Positions 3,512 through 24,781 of a DNA stretch of 64,000 nucleotides are shown in pieces (the first letter of the stretch is position 1; each line of letters opens with the position of its first letter). Under the pieces are notes generated by a model. The model was not told the origin of the DNA, made no database searches, and worked only from the letters and a program-made list of their open reading frames with translations. This DNA is from Dehalococcoidia bacterium (GTDB lineage Bacteria; Chloroflexota; Dehalococcoidia; UBA6926): the NCBI GenBank assembly GCA_963666115.2, contig CAXXET010000003.1, forward strand, positions 1-64,000, written 5' to 3'. Both the position numbers and the translations under genes were made by a program.

Positions 3512-3805
3512 ATGGTTGAACAAGAAGACAACGGCAATGCCCTCACCTTCCTCCTCGGCATCGTCTCAGGCGTCATCGTCGGTGTCGTCCTCGGCGTCCT
3601 CTTCACCCCACAGTCCGGCTCGGAATCGCGGAACGACATCCGTACCCGAACCCTCGGACTCCGCGAGCGCGCCCGCAACATCGGCGAAACGGGCAACGAC
3701 ACCCTCCGCGATGCCATCTCAGAGGGACGCGACGCCGCAATGCGCGCCGGCCAGGAAATGCAGGACTGGATCCGCCACACCCGGGGCGACGGCTCCGCGA
3801 CCTAG
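3512..3805 (+). CDS. YtxH-domain protein
   Basis: FLLGIVSGVIVGVVLGVLFTPQSGSESR matches YtxH pattern. Confidence 0.8.
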   Translation: MVEQEDNGNALTFLLGIVSGVIVGVVLGVLFTPQSGSESRNDIRTRTLGLRERARNIGETGNDTLRDAISEGRDAAMRAGQEMQDWIRHTRGDGSAT

Positions 3806-9523: not shown

Positions 9524-11014
9524 GTGACCACAGTTGACGAGACGATACAGGATGCCGCTCCTGGGACCAATGTGGAACTCAGGAGCATCGCCCAGCAGGA
9601 CTACAAGTACGGCTTCATCACCGAGATCGAAACCGATACCGTCCCCCCCGGCCTCACCGAAGACACCGTCCGCCTCATCTCATCCAAGAAGAATGAGCCG
9701 GAGTGGATGCTGGAATGGCGCCTCAAGGCATTCCGCCACTGGGAGACCCTGTTGGACAAGGAGCAGATCCCGGACTGGGCGCACATCAAGCATCCCCCCA
9801 TCAACTTCCAGGACATCATCTACTACTCCGCTCCCAAGCCAAAGGAGCAGCTCAGCAGCCTCGATGAGGTCGATCCCGAAGTCCTCTCAACCTTTGAAAA
9901 GCTGGGCATCCCCCTTGAGGAGCAGAAGCGTCTCGCCGGCGTTGCCGTGGACGCCGTCTTTGACAGCGTGTCCGTCGCCACCACCTTCAAGGAAAAGCTC
10001 GCCGAGCTCGGCATCATCTTCTCCTCCTTCTCGGAGGCCATCCAGGACCACCCGGAGCTCGTCCGCAAGTACCTCGGCTCCGTCGTCCCCTACACCGACA
10101 ACTTCTATGCCGCCCTCAACGCCGCCGTCTTCTCTGACGGCTCCTTCTGCTACATCCCAAAGGGCGTCCGCTGCCCCATGGAGCTAACCACCTACTTCCG
10201 CATCAATACCGAGAACAGCGGCCAGTTTGAGCGAACGCTGATCGTCGCCGACGAAAGCTCCTACGTCAGCTACCTCGAGGGGTGCAGTGCCCCCATCCGC
10301 GACACCAACCAGCTCCACGCCGCCGTCGTTGAGCTTGTCGCCATGGACGACGCCGAGATCAAGTACTCCACCATCCAGAACTGGTATCCCGGCGACGAAA
10401 ACGGCAAGGGCGGCATCTACAACTTCGTCACCAAGCGTGGCAAGTGCCTGGGCGCGCGCTCAAAGATATCCTGGACGCAGGTCGAAACCGGCTCCGCCAT
10501 CACCTGGAAGTACCCCAGCGTCCTTCTCCAGGGCGACGATTCCATCGGTGAGTTCTATTCCGTCGCGCTCGTCAAGGGCCGCCAGCAGGCCGACACCGGC
10601 TCCAAGATGACCCACATCGGCAAGCGCACGAAGAGCACCATCATCGCCAAGGGCGTATCAGCCGGACAGGCGGAGAACACCTATCGCGGCCTCGTCCGCG
10701 TCAACCCCGGCGCCGATGATTCCTGGAACTTCACCCAGTGCGACTCCCTCCTCATCGGCGACCGGTGCGGCGCGCACACCACCCCGTACGTCGAGGTCAA
10801 GAACAAGTCCGCCCGCCTGGAGCATGAGGCGTTCACCTCCCGCGTCAGCGAAGACCAGCTCTTCTACTGCAACTCGCGCGGCATCTCCGTTGAAAAGGCC
10901 CACTCCATGATCATCAACGGCTTCTGCGAAGAGGTCTTCAAGAAGCTCCCCTTTGAATTCGCCGTAGAAGCCACCCGCCTCCTCGAACTAAACCTCGAAG
11001 GCACCGTCGGCTAG
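9524..11014 (+). CDS. sufB: Fe-S cluster assembly protein SufB
   Basis: [34 protein letters not shown] motifs. Confidence 0.96.
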
Positions 11015-18051: not shown

Positions 18052-18126
18052 GGCAACGTAGCTCAGCGGCAGAGCGGGCGCTTCATAAGCGCTAGGTCAC
18101 AGGTTCGAATCCTGTCGTTGCCACCA
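18052..18126 (+). tRNA. tRNA with CAT anticodon, most likely elongator tRNA-Met
   Basis: Acceptor GGCAACG/CGTTGCC, D arm GCTC/GAGC, anticodon loop TTCATAA, GGTTCGAATCC, encoded CCA; paired 1-72 excludes initiator. Confidence 0.93.
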
Positions 18127-18272: not shown

Positions 18273-18995
18273 ATGCCCCGCATCAAACTCGCCAACAAAA
18301 CCGTCGAATACACCCTCCGCCGCAGCGCCCGCCGCCGCAAAACCGTCGAATTCCGCCTGGTCGGCGGCGAACTCGTCGTCTCCGCCCCCATGCGCGCCCC
18401 CATGCGTGAGCTTGAAGAAATGCTCCGCAAGCGCGCCGACTGGATCCTCGAGAACCTCGGCAAGGAAATCCAAAAGCGCGCCCCCATGCGATTCCTCACC
18501 GGCGAAACCCTCCCCTACCTCGGCCAAAACGTGCCGATTATGACCGAACATACAAACCAACTGCGTCCCCAAATCATATATGACGACTCCCACTTCCGAA
18601 TCGCCGTCCCGGACACCCTCTCAGAAGATGACCGCACAGAAGCCATACACGCCGCAATCGCCGAATGGTATCAGAACCGCGCCGCGGAGCGCGTCCCGGA
18701 AGTCGTGAAGCAATGGTGGCCCCAACTGGGCCGAGGCCAAATGTCGCGCATACTCATCCGAAATCAGCGCAAGCGATGGGGCAGCTGCTCCACAGACGGC
18801 ACTCTCCGCTTCAGCTGGCGCATAATGATGCTGGAACCCACCCTGATCGAACTAATAGTAGTCCACGAACTAGCCCACCTAACCCACCAAAACCACTCAA
18901 AAGACTTCTGGTCATTCGTCCAAACCGCCCTCCCGGACACCCCCCAAAGACGCAAAACCCTCCGGGAATCCAGCCGCGCCCTCCCCGCCCTCTGA
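18273..18995 (+). CDS. SprT/YgjP (DUF45) family zinc metallo-hydrolase
   Basis: RWGSCS, VVHELAHL.H.NHS..FW. Confidence 0.9.
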   Translation: MPRIKLANKTVEYTLRRSARRRKTVEFRLVGGELVVSAPMRAPMRELEEMLRKRADWILENLGKEIQKRAPMRFLTGETLPYLGQNVPIMTEHTNQLRPQIIYDDSHFRIAVPDTLSEDDRTEAIHAAIAEWYQNRAAERVPEVVKQWWPQLGRGQMSRILIRNQRKRWGSCSTDGTLRFSWRIMMLEPTLIELIVVHELAHLTHQNHSKDFWSFVQTALPDTPQRRKTLRESSRALPAL

Positions 18996-19011
18996 AAGCT
19001 ACAATTGCCCC

Positions 19012-20400
19012 ATGGTCAGATTCATAGCCGTAACCGTCATCCTCCTCCTCGCCGCGTGCGCCGGCCCAAACCACGTATCCGTCGATACCCCCGCAGCAAC
19101 CCCACTCTCTATCCCTCCCCTGCTTGAGCCAACGACTAAAGACGGCGTTTCCCACTACGCACTCACAATCGCCAAGTCGCAGCACGACTACAATCAGGCA
19201 GGAATGACGGACACCTACTCCTACAACGGCATGTCCGTCCTCGGCCCCACCCTTCTCCTAAGAACCGGTGACTCGGTAGCCATCAGCGTCACAAACGAAC
19301 TGCGCGAGGTCACCACTACTCACTGGCACGGCGCAGACGTCCCCGCCGACGACGATGGCGGCCCCCACAGCCTCATTGAGCCCGGAACAACCTGGGTAGC
19401 CGACTTCGACGTCATCCAGCCCGCAGCCACCCTCTGGTATCACCCCCACGCCCACGGAACCACAGCCGAGCACGTCTACCGGGGCGCAGCAGGTCTGATG
19501 ATCATCGAAGACGACAACCCCGCCGCCGCAAGCCTGCCGAAAACCTACGGCGTTGACGATATTCCCATCATCCTCCAGGACAGGGACTTCACCGGGGATA
19601 GCCAACTCGACTTCGCCATCGACCCGGACGACGACGGCAATTTCTATTCCACCCTGACCGTGAACGGCACGATCAACCCGTTCCTTGAAGTGCCGAGAGG
19701 ACTGATCCGGCTCCGCCTGCTCAACGGAAGCCAGGCGCGAATCTATGACCTCAGCATTGAGGACGCCGACATGGTCAAGATCGCCTCCGATGGCGGCTAC
19801 CTGGCCAGTCCTGTCCCCGTCGAACAGCTAGTGCTCGCCCCCGGTGACCGCGCCGAGATCATCGTCAACGTCGACGAGCAATCCGTCGCACTGCTCGACG
19901 GCGCGTTTGGCCGGGTGCTGGAACTTCGCCCGAACGGGTCAACACCCGGCACGCGTATCCTTCCGGACGTACTCGCCTCCATAGACCGAATATCCGAGTC
20001 GGAAATCGACATAGACCGGAGCTTCCGAATGGCAGACGCGCGGAACTTCTGGGAGTTCGGCCCAACCTGGGCAATCAACGGAGTCCAGTTCGACAAGGAC
20101 AGAATCGATGTAACGGTGCAATTGGGCGATACCGAGCGTTGGACCCTCTCCAGCGATGACGGCCAGCACGTATTCCACCCCCACCAGGTTCAATTCCAAA
20201 TACTATCGATCAACGGCGAGCCCCCGCCGCCGGAGGAATCAGGCTGGGAAGACTCCGTGCTCGTAGACACCAACCGCGAGGTCATCATAGCCGCGCGTTT
20301 CCACACCTACGCCGCAGAAGACACCCCATACATGTTCCACTGCCACATCCTGGACCACGAAGACCTGGGCATGATGGGCCAATTCCAAATCGTGGAATAA
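19012..20400 (+). CDS. multicopper oxidase (CueO-like), lipoprotein
   Basis: HWHG, WYHPH, HVFHPH, HCHILDHEDLGMM; LAAC lipobox. Confidence 0.93.
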   Translation: MVRFIAVTVILLLAACAGPNHVSVDTPAATPLSIPPLLEPTTKDGVSHYALTIAKSQHDYNQAGMTDTYSYNGMSVLGPTLLLRTGDSVAISVTNELREVTTTHWHGADVPADDDGGPHSLIEPGTTWVADFDVIQPAATLWYHPHAHGTTAEHVYRGAAGLMIIEDDNPAAASLPKTYGVDDIPIILQDRDFTGDSQLDFAIDPDDDGNFYSTLTVNGTINPFLEVPRGLIRLRLLNGSQARIYDLSIEDADMVKIASDGGYLASPVPVEQLVLAPGDRAEIIVNVDEQSVALLDGAFGRVLELRPNGSTPGTRILPDVLASIDRISESEIDIDRSFRMADARNFWEFGPTWAINGVQFDKDRIDVTVQLGDTERWTLSSDDGQHVFHPHQVQFQILSINGEPPPPEESGWEDSVLVDTNREVIIAARFHTYAAEDTPYMFHCHILDHEDLGMMGQFQIVE

Positions 20401-20502: not shown

Positions 20503-20865
20503 ATGGGCGCAACCCACGTCACCGTCAGGATCACAAACCCCGCCGACCCGGAAAAGTTCTGGGAAGGCCTCTTCCTGGTAGACACCGGCGCGACCGATTC
20601 CCTAGTCCCCCGCCAACACCTCGAAGCCATCGGAATTGAGCCTGAAGGGCAGCGCATCTATGGACTGGCCGATGGCAGTGAACTGACCCTTGGCATTGCG
20701 CTCGCCAAAATTGAGTTCATGGGCGAGTTCGTCGGAGGCACGGTCATCTTCGGCGAGCCGGGCGCGGAGCCTCTCCTCGGATTCACCGCCCTCGAATCAG
20801 TCGGCATAGAAGTCGACCCCGTAAACCAACGCCTAAAGCGCCTCCCAGCCGTCCGCCTAAAGTAA
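20503..20865 (+). CDS. clan AA (retropepsin-like) aspartic protease
   Basis: FLVDTGAT and PLLGFTALE motifs. Confidence 0.88.
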   Translation: MGATHVTVRITNPADPEKFWEGLFLVDTGATDSLVPRQHLEAIGIEPEGQRIYGLADGSELTLGIALAKIEFMGEFVGGTVIFGEPGAEPLLGFTALESVGIEVDPVNQRLKRLPAVRLK

Positions 20866-20941
20866 TCCCCTGCCCACCCCCCATCCTTCCCCGGAAAAGC
20901 CTGCCCCCCACGCGATACGGGGCATGAACCTAATCCCCTAA

Positions 20942-21044
20942 ATGTCATTCTGAGCGTAGCGAAGAATCCAAAATCCCTACTACGCCAACCCCCCGGTCGC
21001 TCATCCTGAGCCCCCCCCCCGCTCACCCTGAGCCTGTCGAAGGG
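20942..21044 (+). repeat. REP-like palindrome cluster
   Basis: ATGTCATTCTGAGCGTAGCGAAGAATCC and GCTCACCCTGAGCCTGTCGAAGGG. Confidence 0.85.
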
Positions 21045-21059
21045 CCAGTACCCCGGCCC

Positions 21060-21119
21060 GGCAAAGTAGCTCAGCGGCAGAGTGAGGCTTCATAGGCACT
21101 AGTTCACACTTGTGCTGCC
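21060..21119 (+). pseudogene. degenerate copy of the tRNA-Met at 18052, T-loop deleted
   Basis: GGCAAAGTAGCTCAGCGGCAGAGTGAGGCTTCATAGGCACTAGTTCACA vs GGCAACGTAGCTCAGCGGCAGAGCGGGCGCTTCATAAGCGCTAGGTCACA; ends TGCC; no GGTTCGA, no CCA. Confidence 0.78.
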
Positions 21120-21173
21120 CGACAGTACCCTTTAGTACAGATTCTGCTGCCTTGAAAGTACCAACAGGCAACA

Positions 21174-23234
21174 TTACTTGAATGACCATCCCAGCCTAAG
21201 CGGCCTCCCGTGTAGGGAGCGCCCATCCACATCCATGAAAGCCTTCAGGCTGGCCGCTGGGTCAGACATCTGGACAAAGGCGAAGCCACGATTGGCATTA
21301 GTCAAGTAGTCTCTAGGCACGGTGATCTTGACAACCTTGCCTACCTCTTCAAAGACTTCTCTCAGTTGGTGCTCGTCTACCTGGTAGTCAAGATTGCCCA
21401 CGTAGATGTCTCGTGACGGTGCAATTTGCGGAGTGACGTGATCAGAAGCCGCTTCCTGTGCATGTCGCTGTCGGTCTGGCCTGTCCTCGGCTCCACTGTC
21501 CCACAACTGAACTAGTCGATCAGTTGGATTCCCCGATTGGTCGATTAGATCCAGCCACCTCAGGAGCTGTCTAAGCTTGATCGCACCCTGGTAGGGGTTC
21601 TGACGGCTCAGCCTATCGGCTATCTGTTCATATTGAGTCTTGCCAAACCGTGGCTGATTGCCCAGAGCGACAGCCGCCTCCATAACCTCTCGATGGTCCC
21701 TCTCTGCGAGATCGGGGGTTCTGATGGCAAATCTTGGTACCTCTCGCGGCCCGCTGCCCTGGCGACGCGCAATAGTCCCGGCCTGGCTACGGCTGACCTG
21801 CGAGGATAGCAACCCCTTCGTTTGGAGTCGGTCAATAATCTGCCGATACTCTTCGGTATCAACCAGATCAAGCACCTCCCAGATCTGGCTTGGAGCAATC
21901 AGTTTGCCACCCCGACCTAGCAGTACGACCAGTTTCTCTTCTCTACTCAAATTGAAAGCGCTGTAGGCGTCGAGCCATAGCTGTTCGGTGGGAGCGAACA
22001 AGTTCCTTTGGGAAAACGTAATCGCAAAACTGTCTTCCTCGGACACAATCTCAGGAGGGCCAAGCTCATGGCCGTTCATCAGGGCGTTAATCCGGCGGAT
22101 CCCCTCTCCCATCTCCTGCATATATCCTAGCTCCCTCAGCACCCTCGCGATGTAGGTGTTTCGGGAATCATGTGCCCCTGTCCCTCGCCTGAGCTCTGTC
22201 AATTTCACCGTGGAGAGCAACTGGCCAGGGTTTCGAATTTCGAGCTTATCGTTGAACGCCAAGATTTCTAGTGACCGGCCTTCTGCACTGTAGTCTCTGT
22301 GTGCGATGGCATTCACAAATGCCTCTCTACAAGCGTCCTCGGGATAGGTTGTCTGTAGTTGGAAGGTGCCGCCCGCCAAGCGTCTCTGCACGAGGAACTG
22401 CCTGACCTGCTCCCAACCGGCGCTAAGCAGTTCCAGTATATTCCCTGCCTGAGAATCGTCCTTGCTAACGTTGTAATCTTTTCCGGTCAGGAGTTCTGTC
22501 CCCGAAATCTGTTGCAGCCGAATCTCTGATCTCGGGTGCCATCTTCTTGCGTCACGAGCAAAGAGCAACAATGCAGCGCGACGCAACCTAAGCGAACCAC
22601 CTGCGTATTCGGCGAGTCCCAGAGTCTGCAGGCATTTCTCCGTGGACAGTCCAGGAGAAATGGCCTCAGCTACGCGCTGTAAGAGATCATCTCGGAGGTC
22701 GGCCACAGTTGCACCGTCCACCCATTGCCTATCATATTCTCTAGATATTTGTTCGTGGCGCTCGAACCGAATCTGTTCGCTGGAAACGGGAATCGTGTCG
22801 GAATCCCTACGCTGCAAGCATCTGCCGTCACTGGTCAAGTGAACGAATCCAGTTCCTTTCTGCACATCAAAGATCAGAACAGTCATGCCGCCCAGTTCAA
22901 GCTGGCGAACCCTGACATCCGAAAGCGGCGTGTCAGGATGAACGTGCGTTGACGGGGCTTGCTTCAGAATCTCAATACCGTCGTCCGCATAGTTGAGGCC
23001 AGTAACGGTGCCATCGTCTTCGGCGCCTACCACTAGTGTCCCGCCATCGGCATTGGCAAACGCCACCAGCGTTTCCCCTACGTCCCGGGCGACAAGCTTG
23101 ACCTGGCGCCGCCTGTTTCTTTCTGGGCCCTCAAGTGCGCTCTTGAATTCCCGGAAGTGACTTTCTCCTTGAGCGAGGTCGTTCCGCAGCCGCTCGTCGG
23201 CGAGGAGTAGATGAGTATCGCCTTGGCCCAGCAT
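21174..23234 (-). CDS. Schlafen/AlbA_2 domain + HATPase_c_4 (RecG C-terminal-like) + C-terminal RRM fusion protein
   Basis: GESHFREFKS..VAFANADGGTLVVG; REAFVNAIAHRDYS..IRNPG..SRN..EMGEGI; C-terminal IYVGNL and RGFAFVQM (RNP2/RNP1); start may be TTG 23267. Confidence 0.85.
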   Translation of the reverse strand: MLGQGDTHLLLADERLRNDLAQGESHFREFKSALEGPERNRRRQVKLVARDVGETLVAFANADGGTLVVGAEDDGTVTGLNYADDGIEILKQAPSTHVHPDTPLSDVRVRQLELGGMTVLIFDVQKGTGFVHLTSDGRCLQRRDSDTIPVSSEQIRFERHEQISREYDRQWVDGATVADLRDDLLQRVAEAISPGLSTEKCLQTLGLAEYAGGSLRLRRAALLLFARDARRWHPRSEIRLQQISGTELLTGKDYNVSKDDSQAGNILELLSAGWEQVRQFLVQRRLAGGTFQLQTTYPEDACREAFVNAIAHRDYSAEGRSLEILAFNDKLEIRNPGQLLSTVKLTELRRGTGAHDSRNTYIARVLRELGYMQEMGEGIRRINALMNGHELGPPEIVSEEDSFAITFSQRNLFAPTEQLWLDAYSAFNLSREEKLVVLLGRGGKLIAPSQIWEVLDLVDTEEYRQIIDRLQTKGLLSSQVSRSQAGTIARRQGSGPREVPRFAIRTPDLAERDHREVMEAAVALGNQPRFGKTQYEQIADRLSRQNPYQGAIKLRQLLRWLDLIDQSGNPTDRLVQLWDSGAEDRPDRQRHAQEAASDHVTPQIAPSRDIYVGNLDYQVDEHQLREVFEEVGKVVKITVPRDYLTNANRGFAFVQMSDPAASLKAFMDVDGRSLHGRPLRLGWSFK

Positions 23235-23404
23235 CTGTCTACTCCTTCGGTCAATAATCGTTCCCAACTAAGTTAGCTTGCTTTGGACAGGGTGGCAACA
23301 ATACTTAGTACGCCTGGGACGCCCGATACTTTGCACAGCCAGGTGTTGGTCGCATGGCAGCGTGAAGGCCAGCCCTAGTCTCTCCCGCAAAAGCAGGCAC
23401 CCAC

Positions 23405-23456
23405 CCCGCTCACCCTGACCTCAACATATGTCTTCCTGAGCGCAGCGAAGAATCCC
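23405..23456 (+). repeat. REP-like cluster (degenerate)
   Basis: CCGCTCACCCTGA.. and ATGTCTTCCTGAGCGCAGCGAAGAATCC. Confidence 0.75.
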
Positions 23457-23457
23457 C

Positions 23458-24735
23458 CTAAACCTCAGTCCCCAAAGCCTCCAAAGCCTGCCGCACAATC
23501 GCCCGCCGCAAATCCTTCTCCTCCTCCGCGTCCAACTCCGCGTCGCCCAAGGGATACACGATGCCCTTCCCCTGCACCACGCGGTTGGAGCCGACCATCT
23601 TCGCCACCGGCGTCACCGCCGTCACCTGCGCCACGGGGATGCCCGCCTTTTCCAACTCCGTCGCGATCGCAGCGCCGCTGCGAGTGCTCGTCCCTCAAGT
23701 GGACGTCAGGATCACGGCATCGACCCCCGCGCTCTTCAGATTCTCCGCGATCTCCTGCCCGATCCGCCGACTGTTCGCAAGCGGATTCGCCAGGCCGGTC
23801 ATGGACAGGAACTGCTCATAGACCTTGCCGACCTCACCCGCCTTCTCCAGCTCCTTCAGAACATCGACGGGCACCAGCCGGTCCGGGTCGTTCAGCACGT
23901 GGCGATTGTCGTACCCCCGGTGATAGACCTCGTAGTCCTCCCCCTCCAGGTTATCGACGGTCGCGATGTCATACGAGCCCCAGATCGTCGACGCAATGGC
24001 GGGCATATTGTCCGGGTTGCCCGCCGGAACAAGCCCCCCGTCCGTCACAATCGCCACCGTCGCGTTGCTCAAATCTGCAACGGCGGGCGGCGCGGGAATC
24101 GGCTCGAATCCCGTCTGCGTCAACTCCGTCTCATACGGCTGCCCCTGCGTCTTGGCGACGATCATATTCGCCAGCCGCACCGCCGCAGGTTCCTCGACAA
24201 TCTCGTCGCGCATGATCCCGCGCGGGATGTAGCCCCACTCCGCCGGCCTGCCCACGTCCTCCCCGGACGCTGTGACCTTCGCGATGGCAGCCATCCTGGT
24301 CAGAACGTTCCGCATGTCCGCAACGTTCTCGCCGGAATCGACGATGTACAACTCCTGCCGGTACAAATCGACGCCCGGGTTCTCAACGCCCATCCCCGTC
24401 ACAACGGGAATCCCAAGCTCAGCCTGCACCGCCGCGCACAACGCCCCCGCCGCAACGCCGTAGCGCCCTGCCACGAAGCACGGGCCCGCCACGAACAGGT
24501 CGGCCTCGGAATCGCGCACCTCATTGACGACGAGTTCCATGACGGCTTCAAGGTTCTCAGCGGCGTAATTGTCGCCGCAGACAATCGTCTTGACGACCGT
24601 CGAATCGTCGCCAAGCACCTGCTCCAGCAGACGCCCCGGCCCGACCGCCTCGTTGCGCGTGTCCGGCCCGACGCCCGCCTCCTCTTCGCCGCCCAGTCCG
24701 CCAAAGAACTGGTTCAGATAATGAACGACCTTCAT
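23458..24735 (-). CDS. grdB: glycine/sarcosine/betaine reductase selenoprotein B family
   Basis: MKVVHYLNQFFGG..CGDNY..AGRYG..VDAVILTST-TGA(23697-23695)-GTSTRSGAAIATELEKAGIP joins ORFs 23695..24804 and 23458..23655. Confidence 0.92.
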
Positions 24736-24781
24736 CTCAGGCCTCCCCTGTTCCTCTCCTTGAACTCGCCCCGTTGCCGGC

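Follow-up and report, generated by a model that had tools for sequence, protein, structure and literature searches.

What does a bacterial Schlafen (SLFN) protein use an RNA recognition motif (RRM) at its C-terminus for, and does the decayed tRNA gene beside it belong to the same system? Both questions are raised by a gene on the minus strand of a 64,000-nucleotide (nt) stretch of DNA from a Dehalococcoidia bacterium (assembly GCA_963666115.2, contig CAXXET010000003.1, positions 1 to 64,000), referred to here as the window. Its product of 686 amino acids (aa) combines a Schlafen/AlbA_2 nuclease domain, a GHKL-type ATPase domain, a winged helix-turn-helix (wHTH) region and an RRM. The protein is read here, at somewhat better than even probability, as a Schlafen endoribonuclease gated by ATP, with a tethered RRM that binds single-stranded RNA as trigger or for substrate recruitment; it would be carried by a small mobile cassette and probably act in conflicts with phages or mobile elements. 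An initial annotation made from the sequence alone had proposed an RNA-sensing or RNA-regulated antiphage tRNase. A nuclease directed at tRNA or other RNA and regulated by RNA does emerge as the best mechanistic reading, given the invariant SLFN and GHKL motifs and the tRNA cleavage by related Schlafen-ATPase proteins. Comparison of homologous loci indicates that the tRNA piece is a rearrangement scar.

Domain architecture, conserved motifs and predicted fold

Three Pfam domains above their curated cut-offs confirm the order of AlbA_2, HATPase_c_4 and terminal RRM that the initial annotation had recognised. Numbered along the longest open reading frame (ORF; 21174–23267, minus strand, 697 aa, open back to a TTG at 23267), SLFN_AlbA_2 (PF04326) covers residues 35–161 (E 8.5e-19; 68.7 bits against a cut-off of 25.3; profile positions 1–117 of 118), HATPase_c_4 (PF13749) residues 330–418 (E 2.2e-20) and RRM_1 residues 621–691 (E 2.1e-17; 63.2 bits against 20.7). 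Among NCBIfam models the RRM alone was matched, as a bacterial "Rbp_regulator," with a score under the cut-off. The ATG at 23234 is likely to be the true start rather than the TTG at 23267, because the GAAGGAG upstream of it, a 686-aa database protein (P0001, 100% identical to the gene product) and the starts of homologues agree. The remaining residue numbers refer to the 686-aa protein:

21174–23234, minus strand: coding sequence of the Schlafen-GHKL-wHTH-RRM protein, 686 aa plus TAA stop
23242–23248, minus strand: Shine-Dalgarno sequence GAAGGAG, 7 nt before the ATG at 23234, read from the sequence
22785–23165, minus strand: SLFN_AlbA_2 nuclease domain, residues 24–150, with E24-x4-E29-x-K31 and VAFANADGG
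22014–22280, minus strand: HATPase_c_4/GHKL ATPase domain, residues 319–407
21486–21998, minus strand: helical/winged-helix region, residues 413–583, its second half being the most variable folded part
21429–21485, minus strand: disordered linker tethering the RRM, residues 584–602, predicted local distance difference test (pLDDT) below 50
21186–21407, minus strand: canonical RRM, residues 610–683, RNP2 IYVGNL and RNP1 RGFAFVQM

The motifs ESHFREFKS, AFANADGG, IYVGNL and RGFAFVQM, first picked out by the initial annotation, are all present in the ORF. Across 69 full-length homologues that are 43–87% identical to P0001, residues E24, S25, F27, R28, E29 and K31 of the E(x)4ExK motif are invariant, as are F59, N61, A62, G64 and G65 of the VAFANADGG box, where D63 occurs in at least 90%. 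GHKL ATPases are marked by an N-box asparagine with a preceding glutamate and by glycine-rich boxes, and the RRM consensus consists of RNP2 and RNP1 with aromatic residues on the sheet. In the same alignment the GHKL residues E304, N308, H312, R313, Y315, G337 and G376-E377-G378 are invariant, with E304 and N308 lying in the nucleotide-binding stretch EAFVNAIAHRDY, and the RRM residues N614, F628, R649, G650 and F653 are kept in at least 90% of the proteins. The invariance of the nuclease motif across such diverse homologues argues for a nuclease that has retained catalysis. Conservation differs between segments (mean pairwise identity):

SLFN segment: 0.58
GHKL segment: 0.65
First winged helix: 0.53
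Second helical part: 0.30
Linker: 0.11, with 66% gaps
RRM segment: 0.43

The AlphaFold2 model (pLDDT 85.7; predicted template modelling score 0.77) arranges the chain as SLFN domain, linker domain, GHKL domain, helical winged-helix region (413–583) and disordered segment, with disorder confined to residues 584–602. The modelled RRM consists of the DSSP elements E610–613, H621–628, E634–638, E652–656, H659–668 and E680–683, and superposes on RNA-bound solved RRMs at a root-mean-square deviation of 1.1–1.9 Å. The top solved Foldseek match is DIP2311 of Corynebacterium diphtheriae (3lmm; E 6e-19, 17–20% identity over 464–619 alignment columns), a structural-genomics AlbA_2-HATPase_c_4-wHTH protein with neither an RRM tail nor a known function, so that the match speaks for membership of the fold only. 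PADLOC matches are limited to the SLFN-ATPase part of prokaryotic Argonaute (pAgo) models, the model PDLC02394 aligning with residues 51–416 (E 4.7e-19). This alignment covers model positions 45–432 of 1121 and no Argonaute domain was found by Pfam, i.e., the PAZ/MID/PIWI core is absent.

Relation to characterised Schlafen proteins

The unit of SLFN and GHKL domains has been named "Schlatpase" in a preprint on RzAgo of Runella zeae, a protein that forms an ATP-driven tetramer, cleaves tRNA and protects against phage (bioRxiv 10.64898/2026.05.29.728809). Schlatpases make up 60,692 of 103,533 prokaryotic SLFN proteins, and over 90% of their tails are HTH domains, followed by TPR and Ig-like ones (bioRxiv 10.64898/2026.05.29.728809). 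The window protein contains PF04326 followed by PF13749 in a single polypeptide, the defining order of the Schlatpase supradomain, and its fold matches 3lmm. The active site described for SLFN-pAgo proteins comprises E(x)4(D/E)xK, a SAFAN box and a Gly/hydrophobic stretch (bioRxiv 10.64898/2026.05.29.728809). This signature is found in the window protein, where ESHFREFK and VAFANADGGTLVVG supply the E(x)4(D/E)xK motif and the SAFAN-type Schlafen box. Beyond this domain order and these motifs, which both proteins share, the window protein differs from RzAgo as portrayed in the preprint: it lacks a PAZ, MID or PIWI core as well as guide-dependent sensing, the wHTH region and the tethered RRM occupy the place of the sensor, and its length is 686 aa as opposed to 1,071–1,187 aa.

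RorSlfn5, a bacterial Schlafen with an Ig-like domain, is triggered by phage T5 (bioRxiv 10.1101/2025.07.24.666596) and is described elsewhere as cleaving tRNA anticodon loops (PMC13462974). Being a Schlafen effector encoded by one gene, with a sensor-type module fused at the C-terminus, it offers a precedent for a trigger set by the tail, although its tail is a protein-sensing Ig-like fold and not an RNA-binding domain. CbCash, a CRISPR-associated Schlafen, is reported as a tRNA endonuclease that is turned on by cyclic tetra-adenylate (cA4) and causes growth arrest (PMC13462974). It likewise has two acidic catalytic residues five positions apart (E17/D22, compared to E24/E29 in the window protein), but it is controlled by cA4 through a Csx15 domain and has neither a GHKL ATPase nor an RRM. 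The mammalian tRNA/rRNA endoribonucleases SLFN11 and SLFN13 share the fold and motif of the catalytic C-lobe as well as regulation by a nucleotide-binding domain and oligomerisation; according to the accounts drawn on, their SLFN core has two lobes and their ATPase is of the SF1 helicase type, whereas the window protein has a single lobe, a GHKL domain and an RRM. According to a BREX survey, at least 1,017 taxa have Schlafen-histidine-kinase-wHTH genes in linkage with BREX.

A clade with alternating RNA-binding tails

The initial annotation did not recognise a terminal RRM as a usual architecture. With respect to Schlatpases at large this agrees with the share of HTH tails given in the RzAgo preprint. 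The implied rarity, however, is not borne out: domain HMMs find all four modules complete in 99 of the 120 best 90%-identity clusters, the others being N-terminally short but RRM-bearing (7) or without RRM (14), which makes the architecture common in sequence databases. Among 1.84 billion 50%-identity representatives, 217 score at E ≤ 1e-30, and of the best 150 of these 217, 16 have all four modules complete and 27 are fragments that bear the RRM tail of the family. Furthermore, the tail is present in 27 of 80 metagenome loci (20 intact, 7 split or cut), and RRM_1 is found in 88% of an ESM-Atlas cluster of 83 members. RRM-tailed members span at least six phyla, with source names such as Dehalococcoidia, Chloroflexota, Binatia, Bryobacterales, Lacibacter, Bradyrhizobium oligotrophicum and Streptomyces sp. 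R02, and their source annotations read only "ATP-binding protein," "RecG" or "putative DNA binding." The literature searches returned no paper on HATPase_c_4 with RRM and, for Schlafen with RRM or "RNA recognition motif," none describing the fusion. The word RRM occurs zero times in the main texts of the RzAgo, CbCash and RorSlfn5 papers, a count that does not extend to the 55 architectures in Supplementary Table 2 of the RorSlfn5 paper. The RRM-tailed Schlatpase is therefore an architecture that is common in databases and for which no description was found in print.

A maximum-likelihood tree was built from the SLFN-to-GHKL core of 68 rows, each kept only if it had at least 480 aa and both domains. 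All 23 RRM rows fall into one clade of 37 (UFBoot 100, SH-aLRT 99), together with two rows tailed by a cold-shock domain (CSD), two tailed by LOTUS domains, eight classed as "mid, no RRM" and two others; 30 generic Schlatpases are separate from this clade. By Pfam, the CSD forms the tail of P0138 and P0140, and three OST-HTH/LOTUS domains form that of P0136 and P0143. The tail of P0144 is a weak, divergent RRM (E 3e-4; 21.0 bits against a cut-off of 20.7). In P0133 Pfam gives only a non-significant winged-helix match (E 0.24) and in P0131 no match, so that two tails, possibly LOTUS-like to the eye, are without annotation, and three siblings within the clade stop directly after the helical region. 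The annotated non-RRM tails of the clade, CSD and OST-HTH/LOTUS, are thus likewise predicted RNA-binding modules. Since the tree demands eight changes of the RRM label, three of which are forced by well-supported branches, several tail swaps or losses are indicated.

One further relative, P0059 (701 aa, 65% identical over 72% of the query), carries HTH_11 and WYL in place of the SLFN domain, with GHKL, helical and RRM parts retained. A genuine domain swap and a chimera are both conceivable, and as the protein comes from a single 5.3-kb contig it is given little weight.

A foreign insert in a repeat-rich hot spot

The gene is a horizontally acquired accessory cassette in a recombination hot spot rich in repetitive extragenic palindromic (REP)-like repeats. 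Its foreign origin follows from a low GC content at third codon positions (GC3), its presence in a single one of 21 other same-genus genomes and its position as an insert in this hot spot:

20866–23453, no strand: whole 2.6-kb insert, between an aspartyl-protease gene and the end of grdB
20942–21048, plus strand: left cluster of REP-like dispersed repeats
23397–23455, plus strand: right cluster of REP-like dispersed repeats

GC3 is 0.595, compared to 0.71–0.84 in four neighbour genes, and the GC content of the gene is 0.554 in a genome of 0.634, which bears out the earlier remark that the gene deviates from the style of its neighbours. The bracketing REP-like clusters, also noticed at that stage, are real and belong to dispersed families, CTGAGCGYAGCGAAG with 87 and CTGAGCCTGTCGAAGGG with 33 copies in 2.07 Mb. 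Across the insert, 20942–20969 matches 23428–23455 at 89% and 21010–31 matches 23397–418 at 91%. In the 64-kb window all copies of the two REP-like motif classes (8 and 6) lie on the plus strand and none on the minus strand. A promoter and terminator consensus scan of 20800–23600 gave counts no higher than in shuffles, with no terminator between the stop codon and the tRNA piece.

From the aspartyl-protease gene (20503–20865) to the end of grdB (23454 onward) the window holds 2,588 bp; the same gap measures 42 to ~160 bp in six relatives (G002, G004, G005, G006, G017 and G020), and in four loci (L018, L020, L021 and L023) the sequence of the gap shows nothing but the same REP-like elements. 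Different genes abut grdB in five further relatives, among them a multicopper oxidase in L017. The interval is thus a variable hot spot, as the insert is missing in relatives and other genes abut grdB elsewhere.

The distribution search covered 40 other genomes, including the 21 of the same genus. The only same-genus homologue is that of genome G021 (locus L010), so that 2 of 22 genus genomes carry the gene when the source genome is counted, and at E ≤ 1e-10 the search otherwise returned two distant Schlatpases lacking the RRM (both in G032) and an RRM on its own (in G024). The G021 copy (86% amino-acid and 80% nucleotide identity) is located elsewhere, ~100 kb from the G021 grd genes, in the order Vsr endonuclease, restriction-type GmrSD_N gene, Schlafen-RRM gene, large serine recombinase, tRNA-Val and tRNA-Met, both tRNA genes being convergent with the gene and 1.9 kb from its stop codon. 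Beyond the coding sequence, similarity between the two copies is limited to ~10 nt following the stop and to patches in the 5′ leader. The serine recombinase frame of G021 (L010:8317–10017, plus strand) runs 58 nt into the antisense of tRNA-Val (9960–10036, minus strand), and an element boundary may lie inside this tRNA gene; a tRNA-Val repeat search found no far end of the G021 island.

The multicopper oxidase gene of the window (19012–20400, plus strand) is accessory as well, with DNA matches only in G003 and G013 among the 21 same-genus genomes. In G003 it lies directly against grdB, which indicates that the same hot spot accepts other cargo. The grdB gene itself (23458–24738, minus strand; PF07355, E 2.4e-128) contains an in-frame TGA at 23695–23697. 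If this codon is read as selenocysteine (U348), the frame runs for 78 more residues to a TAG ending at 23458, and a tRNA-SeC is present in the genome at C6:144464–144561.

The tRNA-Met remnant beside the gene

The initial annotation had placed a decayed tRNA-Met copy on the opposite strand about 55 nt from the stop codon and had suggested either a decoy or antitoxin RNA or merely an integration scar. The copy is real, at a distance of 65 nt:

21051–21108, plus strand: decayed 5′ two-thirds of a tRNA-Met (tRNA positions 1–50) with 9 nt of native upstream flank
18052–18126, plus strand: intact tRNA-Met (CAT), paralogue of the fragment

By sequence comparison the fragment appears as a non-functional rearrangement scar and not as a partner RNA, and of the two earlier suggestions it is the scar that fits. 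Within 50 nt it has six substitutions and one deletion, and it lacks the T arm and the 3′ acceptor strand. The source genome and G021 have the same intact tRNA-Met over all 75 nt, against which the seven differences point to relaxed constraint on the fragment. ARAGORN calls tRNAs only at 18052 and 18179 in the window and not the fragment, Rfam gives it no tRNA match at E ≤ 10, and on neither strand does it fold better than shuffles (z 0.25 and 0.12).

The 9-nt flank of the fragment matches the tRNA-Met flank of its own genome and not that of G021. The native tRNA-Met locus of eight relatives aligns with the fragment from 21 nt upstream (window position 21039), which identifies the left side as native tRNA-Met context and places the breakpoint inside the tRNA near position 50. 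A simple duplication of an integrase attachment (att) site was considered and rejected, as the product would then be either a 3′ fragment or, upstream of the intact gene, a 5′ fragment. The fragment observed is a 5′ one and lies 3 kb downstream of the intact tRNA-Met in the same orientation. The fragment may instead be a truncated tRNA-Met copy carried along with the cassette, or a tRNA split by a serine-recombinase-type insertion with subsequent recombination between the flanking REP-like repeats.

No recurrent tRNA association is seen across 33 RRM-bearing homologue loci (6 genomic and 27 metagenomic). ARAGORN finds tRNA genes in three of them, varying in identity, side and distance: Met/Val at 1.9 kb (L010), Leu just upstream (L044) and SeC at 2 kb (L061). 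Fragments were sought by BLAST of 400-nt flanks against the 47 tRNAs of the source genome (E ≤ 0.005). A downstream tRNA-like match was obtained in 1 of 33 loci (L061), compared to none of 33 coding-region controls, and the window itself scored 4e-6; the upstream matches (3 of 31) are L061, the true tRNA of L044 and a 15-nt match in L048. In 12 homologue loci searched with Rfam at E ≤ 1, only the true tRNA-Leu (L044) and tRNA-SeC (L061) were found, a search that also misses the window fragment and so does not pick up pieces of this kind. Downstream of the G021 copy the fragment is absent, the alignment ending ~10 nt after the stop codon. The decoy or antitoxin suggestion thus finds no counterpart in the homologues. 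Differing tRNA identities, sides and parts among the loci instead suggest islands inserted at tRNA genes rather than a cognate RNA.

In L061, direct repeats of 112 nt (412–523 and 2704–2815, 94% identical) bracket a frameshifted RRM-Schlatpase gene. They end in an antisense piece resembling a tRNA 3′ end. A third copy, of 39 nt, lies at 3600–3638, and the arrangement resembles tandem att-type scars with no integrase between them. This locus is a second, independent mobile-element signature that involves a different tRNA and its 3′ end. Att repeats were also sought in L044 and L048, where none were found.

Near the intact tRNA genes of the window, tRNA-Val and the 18293–18999 segment are adjacent (region 18256 onward), and in the relatives G003, G008, G013 and G018 the corresponding sites are separated by 6.6 to 19 kb of variable DNA. 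A tRNA-linked island thus seems to be missing or displaced in the source genome. Only two of the 47 tRNAs called by ARAGORN in this genome have CAT anticodons (C3:18052 and C4:358234). A bacterium normally needs three, for initiator, elongator and tRNA-Ile2, and the third may be unassembled in this 9-contig genome.

Neighbourhoods of the homologues

Of the 33 RRM loci, 23 have enough flanking sequence for neighbours to be assessed; L028, L030, L036, L048, L065, L067, L071, L072, L074 and L075 were dropped. Neighbouring ORFs within 5 kb were called by a greedy longest-ORF rule and assigned by Pfam at E ≤ 1e-5 (E ≤ 1e-3 for the ORFs of L010). Mobile-element or defence genes were found at nine of the 23 loci, as a raw count:

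L010: Vsr, GmrSD_N, serine recombinase
L012: DUF4062, serine recombinase, tyrosine integrase
L013: DDE transposase, AAA_14/DUF4143
L025: HipA_C, two integrases
L026: PIN_10/DUF433, MazF/PemK, two Gp49+HTH_37 pairs, M78/HTH_3, ResIII
L027: 1,359-aa Eco57I-type methylase, conjugative-transposon DUFs
L040: C-5 methylase, HNH, DndB
L041: PRTase-CE and metallo-beta-lactamase
L045: integrase, PHP and AAA_21

An all-against-all BLAST of 167 neighbour proteins revealed no conserved partner, and the sole recurring neighbours are integrases (L025 and L045) and serine recombinases (L010 and L012). In plasmid and phage collections 2 and 14 records match, respectively. These are distant RRM-less Schlatpases, none of which covers 80% of the query or reaches the RRM.

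Proposed mechanism and competing explanations

The favoured reading can be spelled out as follows. The protein would be a stand-alone Schlatpase, a metal-dependent Schlafen/AlbA_2 endoribonuclease fused to a GHKL ATPase, with the RRM held on a flexible tether of ~20 residues beyond the usual winged-helix region. Pairs of its single-lobe SLFN domains would assemble to form the active nuclease, with tRNA and perhaps other RNA as its substrates. The RRM, replaced by a CSD or LOTUS domains in sister lineages, would supply binding to single-stranded RNA and either sense a trigger RNA or recruit substrate RNA. For substrate recruitment there is a functional analogy in the eukaryotic germline protein MARF1, an NYN RNase with RRM and LOTUS domains; it combines an RNase with the same kinds of RNA-binding module but has an unrelated nuclease fold and no ATPase, so that it serves as an analogy only. 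A role in conflict, as an anti-phage or abortive-infection protein, would be the likeliest biology because the horizontally acquired cassette sits in a recombination hot spot with many REP-like repeats; for the RRM-tailed protein, defence is plausible but unproven. Several observations weigh against this reading. Substrate, ATP gating and oligomerisation are inferred from relatives at most ~30% identical in the shared part. At 14 of the 23 assessable loci the neighbours are housekeeping genes or unknown; these loci include the three closest genome loci from outside the genus (L008, L009 and L011), and 10 of the 33 RRM loci are too short for their context to be judged. Neighbours were called by a crude rule and scanned with Pfam only. 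The plasmid and phage collections yielded no RRM-type member, and the RRM is fairly conserved rather than hypervariable as many phage sensors are.

Some of these points would equally suit an enzyme of housekeeping or stress-related RNA processing or decay, or a post-transcriptional regulator, in which the RRM, CSD or LOTUS tail directs the RNase towards cellular RNAs, e.g., during cold or nutrient stress. Metabolic genes are among the neighbours at those 14 loci, RRM and CSD are typical of general RNA metabolism, the RRM is moderately conserved, and no defence-specific PADLOC family was matched. However, patchy occurrence within the genus and atypical composition are unlike a core RNA-metabolism enzyme, linkage to recombinases, integrases, restriction-modification and toxin-antitoxin genes recurs, and the prokaryotic Schlafens characterised in the publications drawn on are defence effectors. 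A housekeeping role is therefore regarded as possible but rather unlikely. It is improbable that the protein is a nucleic-acid-binding regulator without nuclease activity, to which the RRM merely adds RNA binding, as the older label "putative transcriptional regulator/RecG-like" would have it. Database annotations ("putative DNA binding domain-containing protein," "ATP-binding protein," "RecG"), the winged-helix region and the lack of catalytic residues in some mammalian Schlafens mentioned in one of the accounts (PMC13462974) are in line with such a regulator, but the acidic/Lys nuclease motif and the SAFAN-type box are invariant in the 69 homologues.

The idea that the tRNA-Met-like piece serves the nuclease as a functional RNA, be it as decoy, as antitoxin or as antisense element within the 3′ untranslated region, is largely refuted by the comparison of loci as far as sequence can tell, and has very little probability left. 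Its position on the opposite strand just beyond the stop codon, the role of tRNAs as known substrates of the family and the occurrence of tRNA genes or fragments antisense to the gene also in G021 and L061 had spoken for it. These stand against the lack of the piece downstream of the G021 copy, the scatter of tRNA genes (3 of 33 loci) and fragments (1 of 33), the decay relative to an intact tRNA that is identical in both genomes, the lack of a fold beyond shuffles and of an Rfam match, and the native tRNA-Met upstream context of the left flank in eight relatives.

Implications

Bacterial Schlafens have been shown to be tRNA-cutting immune effectors only in 2025–2026, and how the very common Schlatpase proteins are switched on is still described as an open question in the publications drawn on. 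The most interesting point of the present analysis is that RRM, CSD and LOTUS tails have been exchanged repeatedly within one Schlatpase clade, as the alternation of three unrelated RNA-binding folds points to RNA as the regulatory or targeting ligand. The clade may serve as a compact single-gene model for this idea, and it connects with the coupling of nucleic-acid sensing to tRNA cleavage in mammalian Schlafens. The tRNA fragment has no comparable significance; it is an example of cassette movement through hot spots associated with tRNA genes and REP-like repeats. In a bolder and doubtful version, the clade would be a single-protein abortive-infection system in which the RRM, CSD or LOTUS tail senses single-stranded RNA or DNA arising in phage infection and licenses ATP-dependent assembly and tRNA cutting. 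If true, a classical RNA-binding domain would let nucleic acid trigger a bacterial Schlafen directly, as a counterpart to the sensing of single-stranded DNA by human SLFN11.

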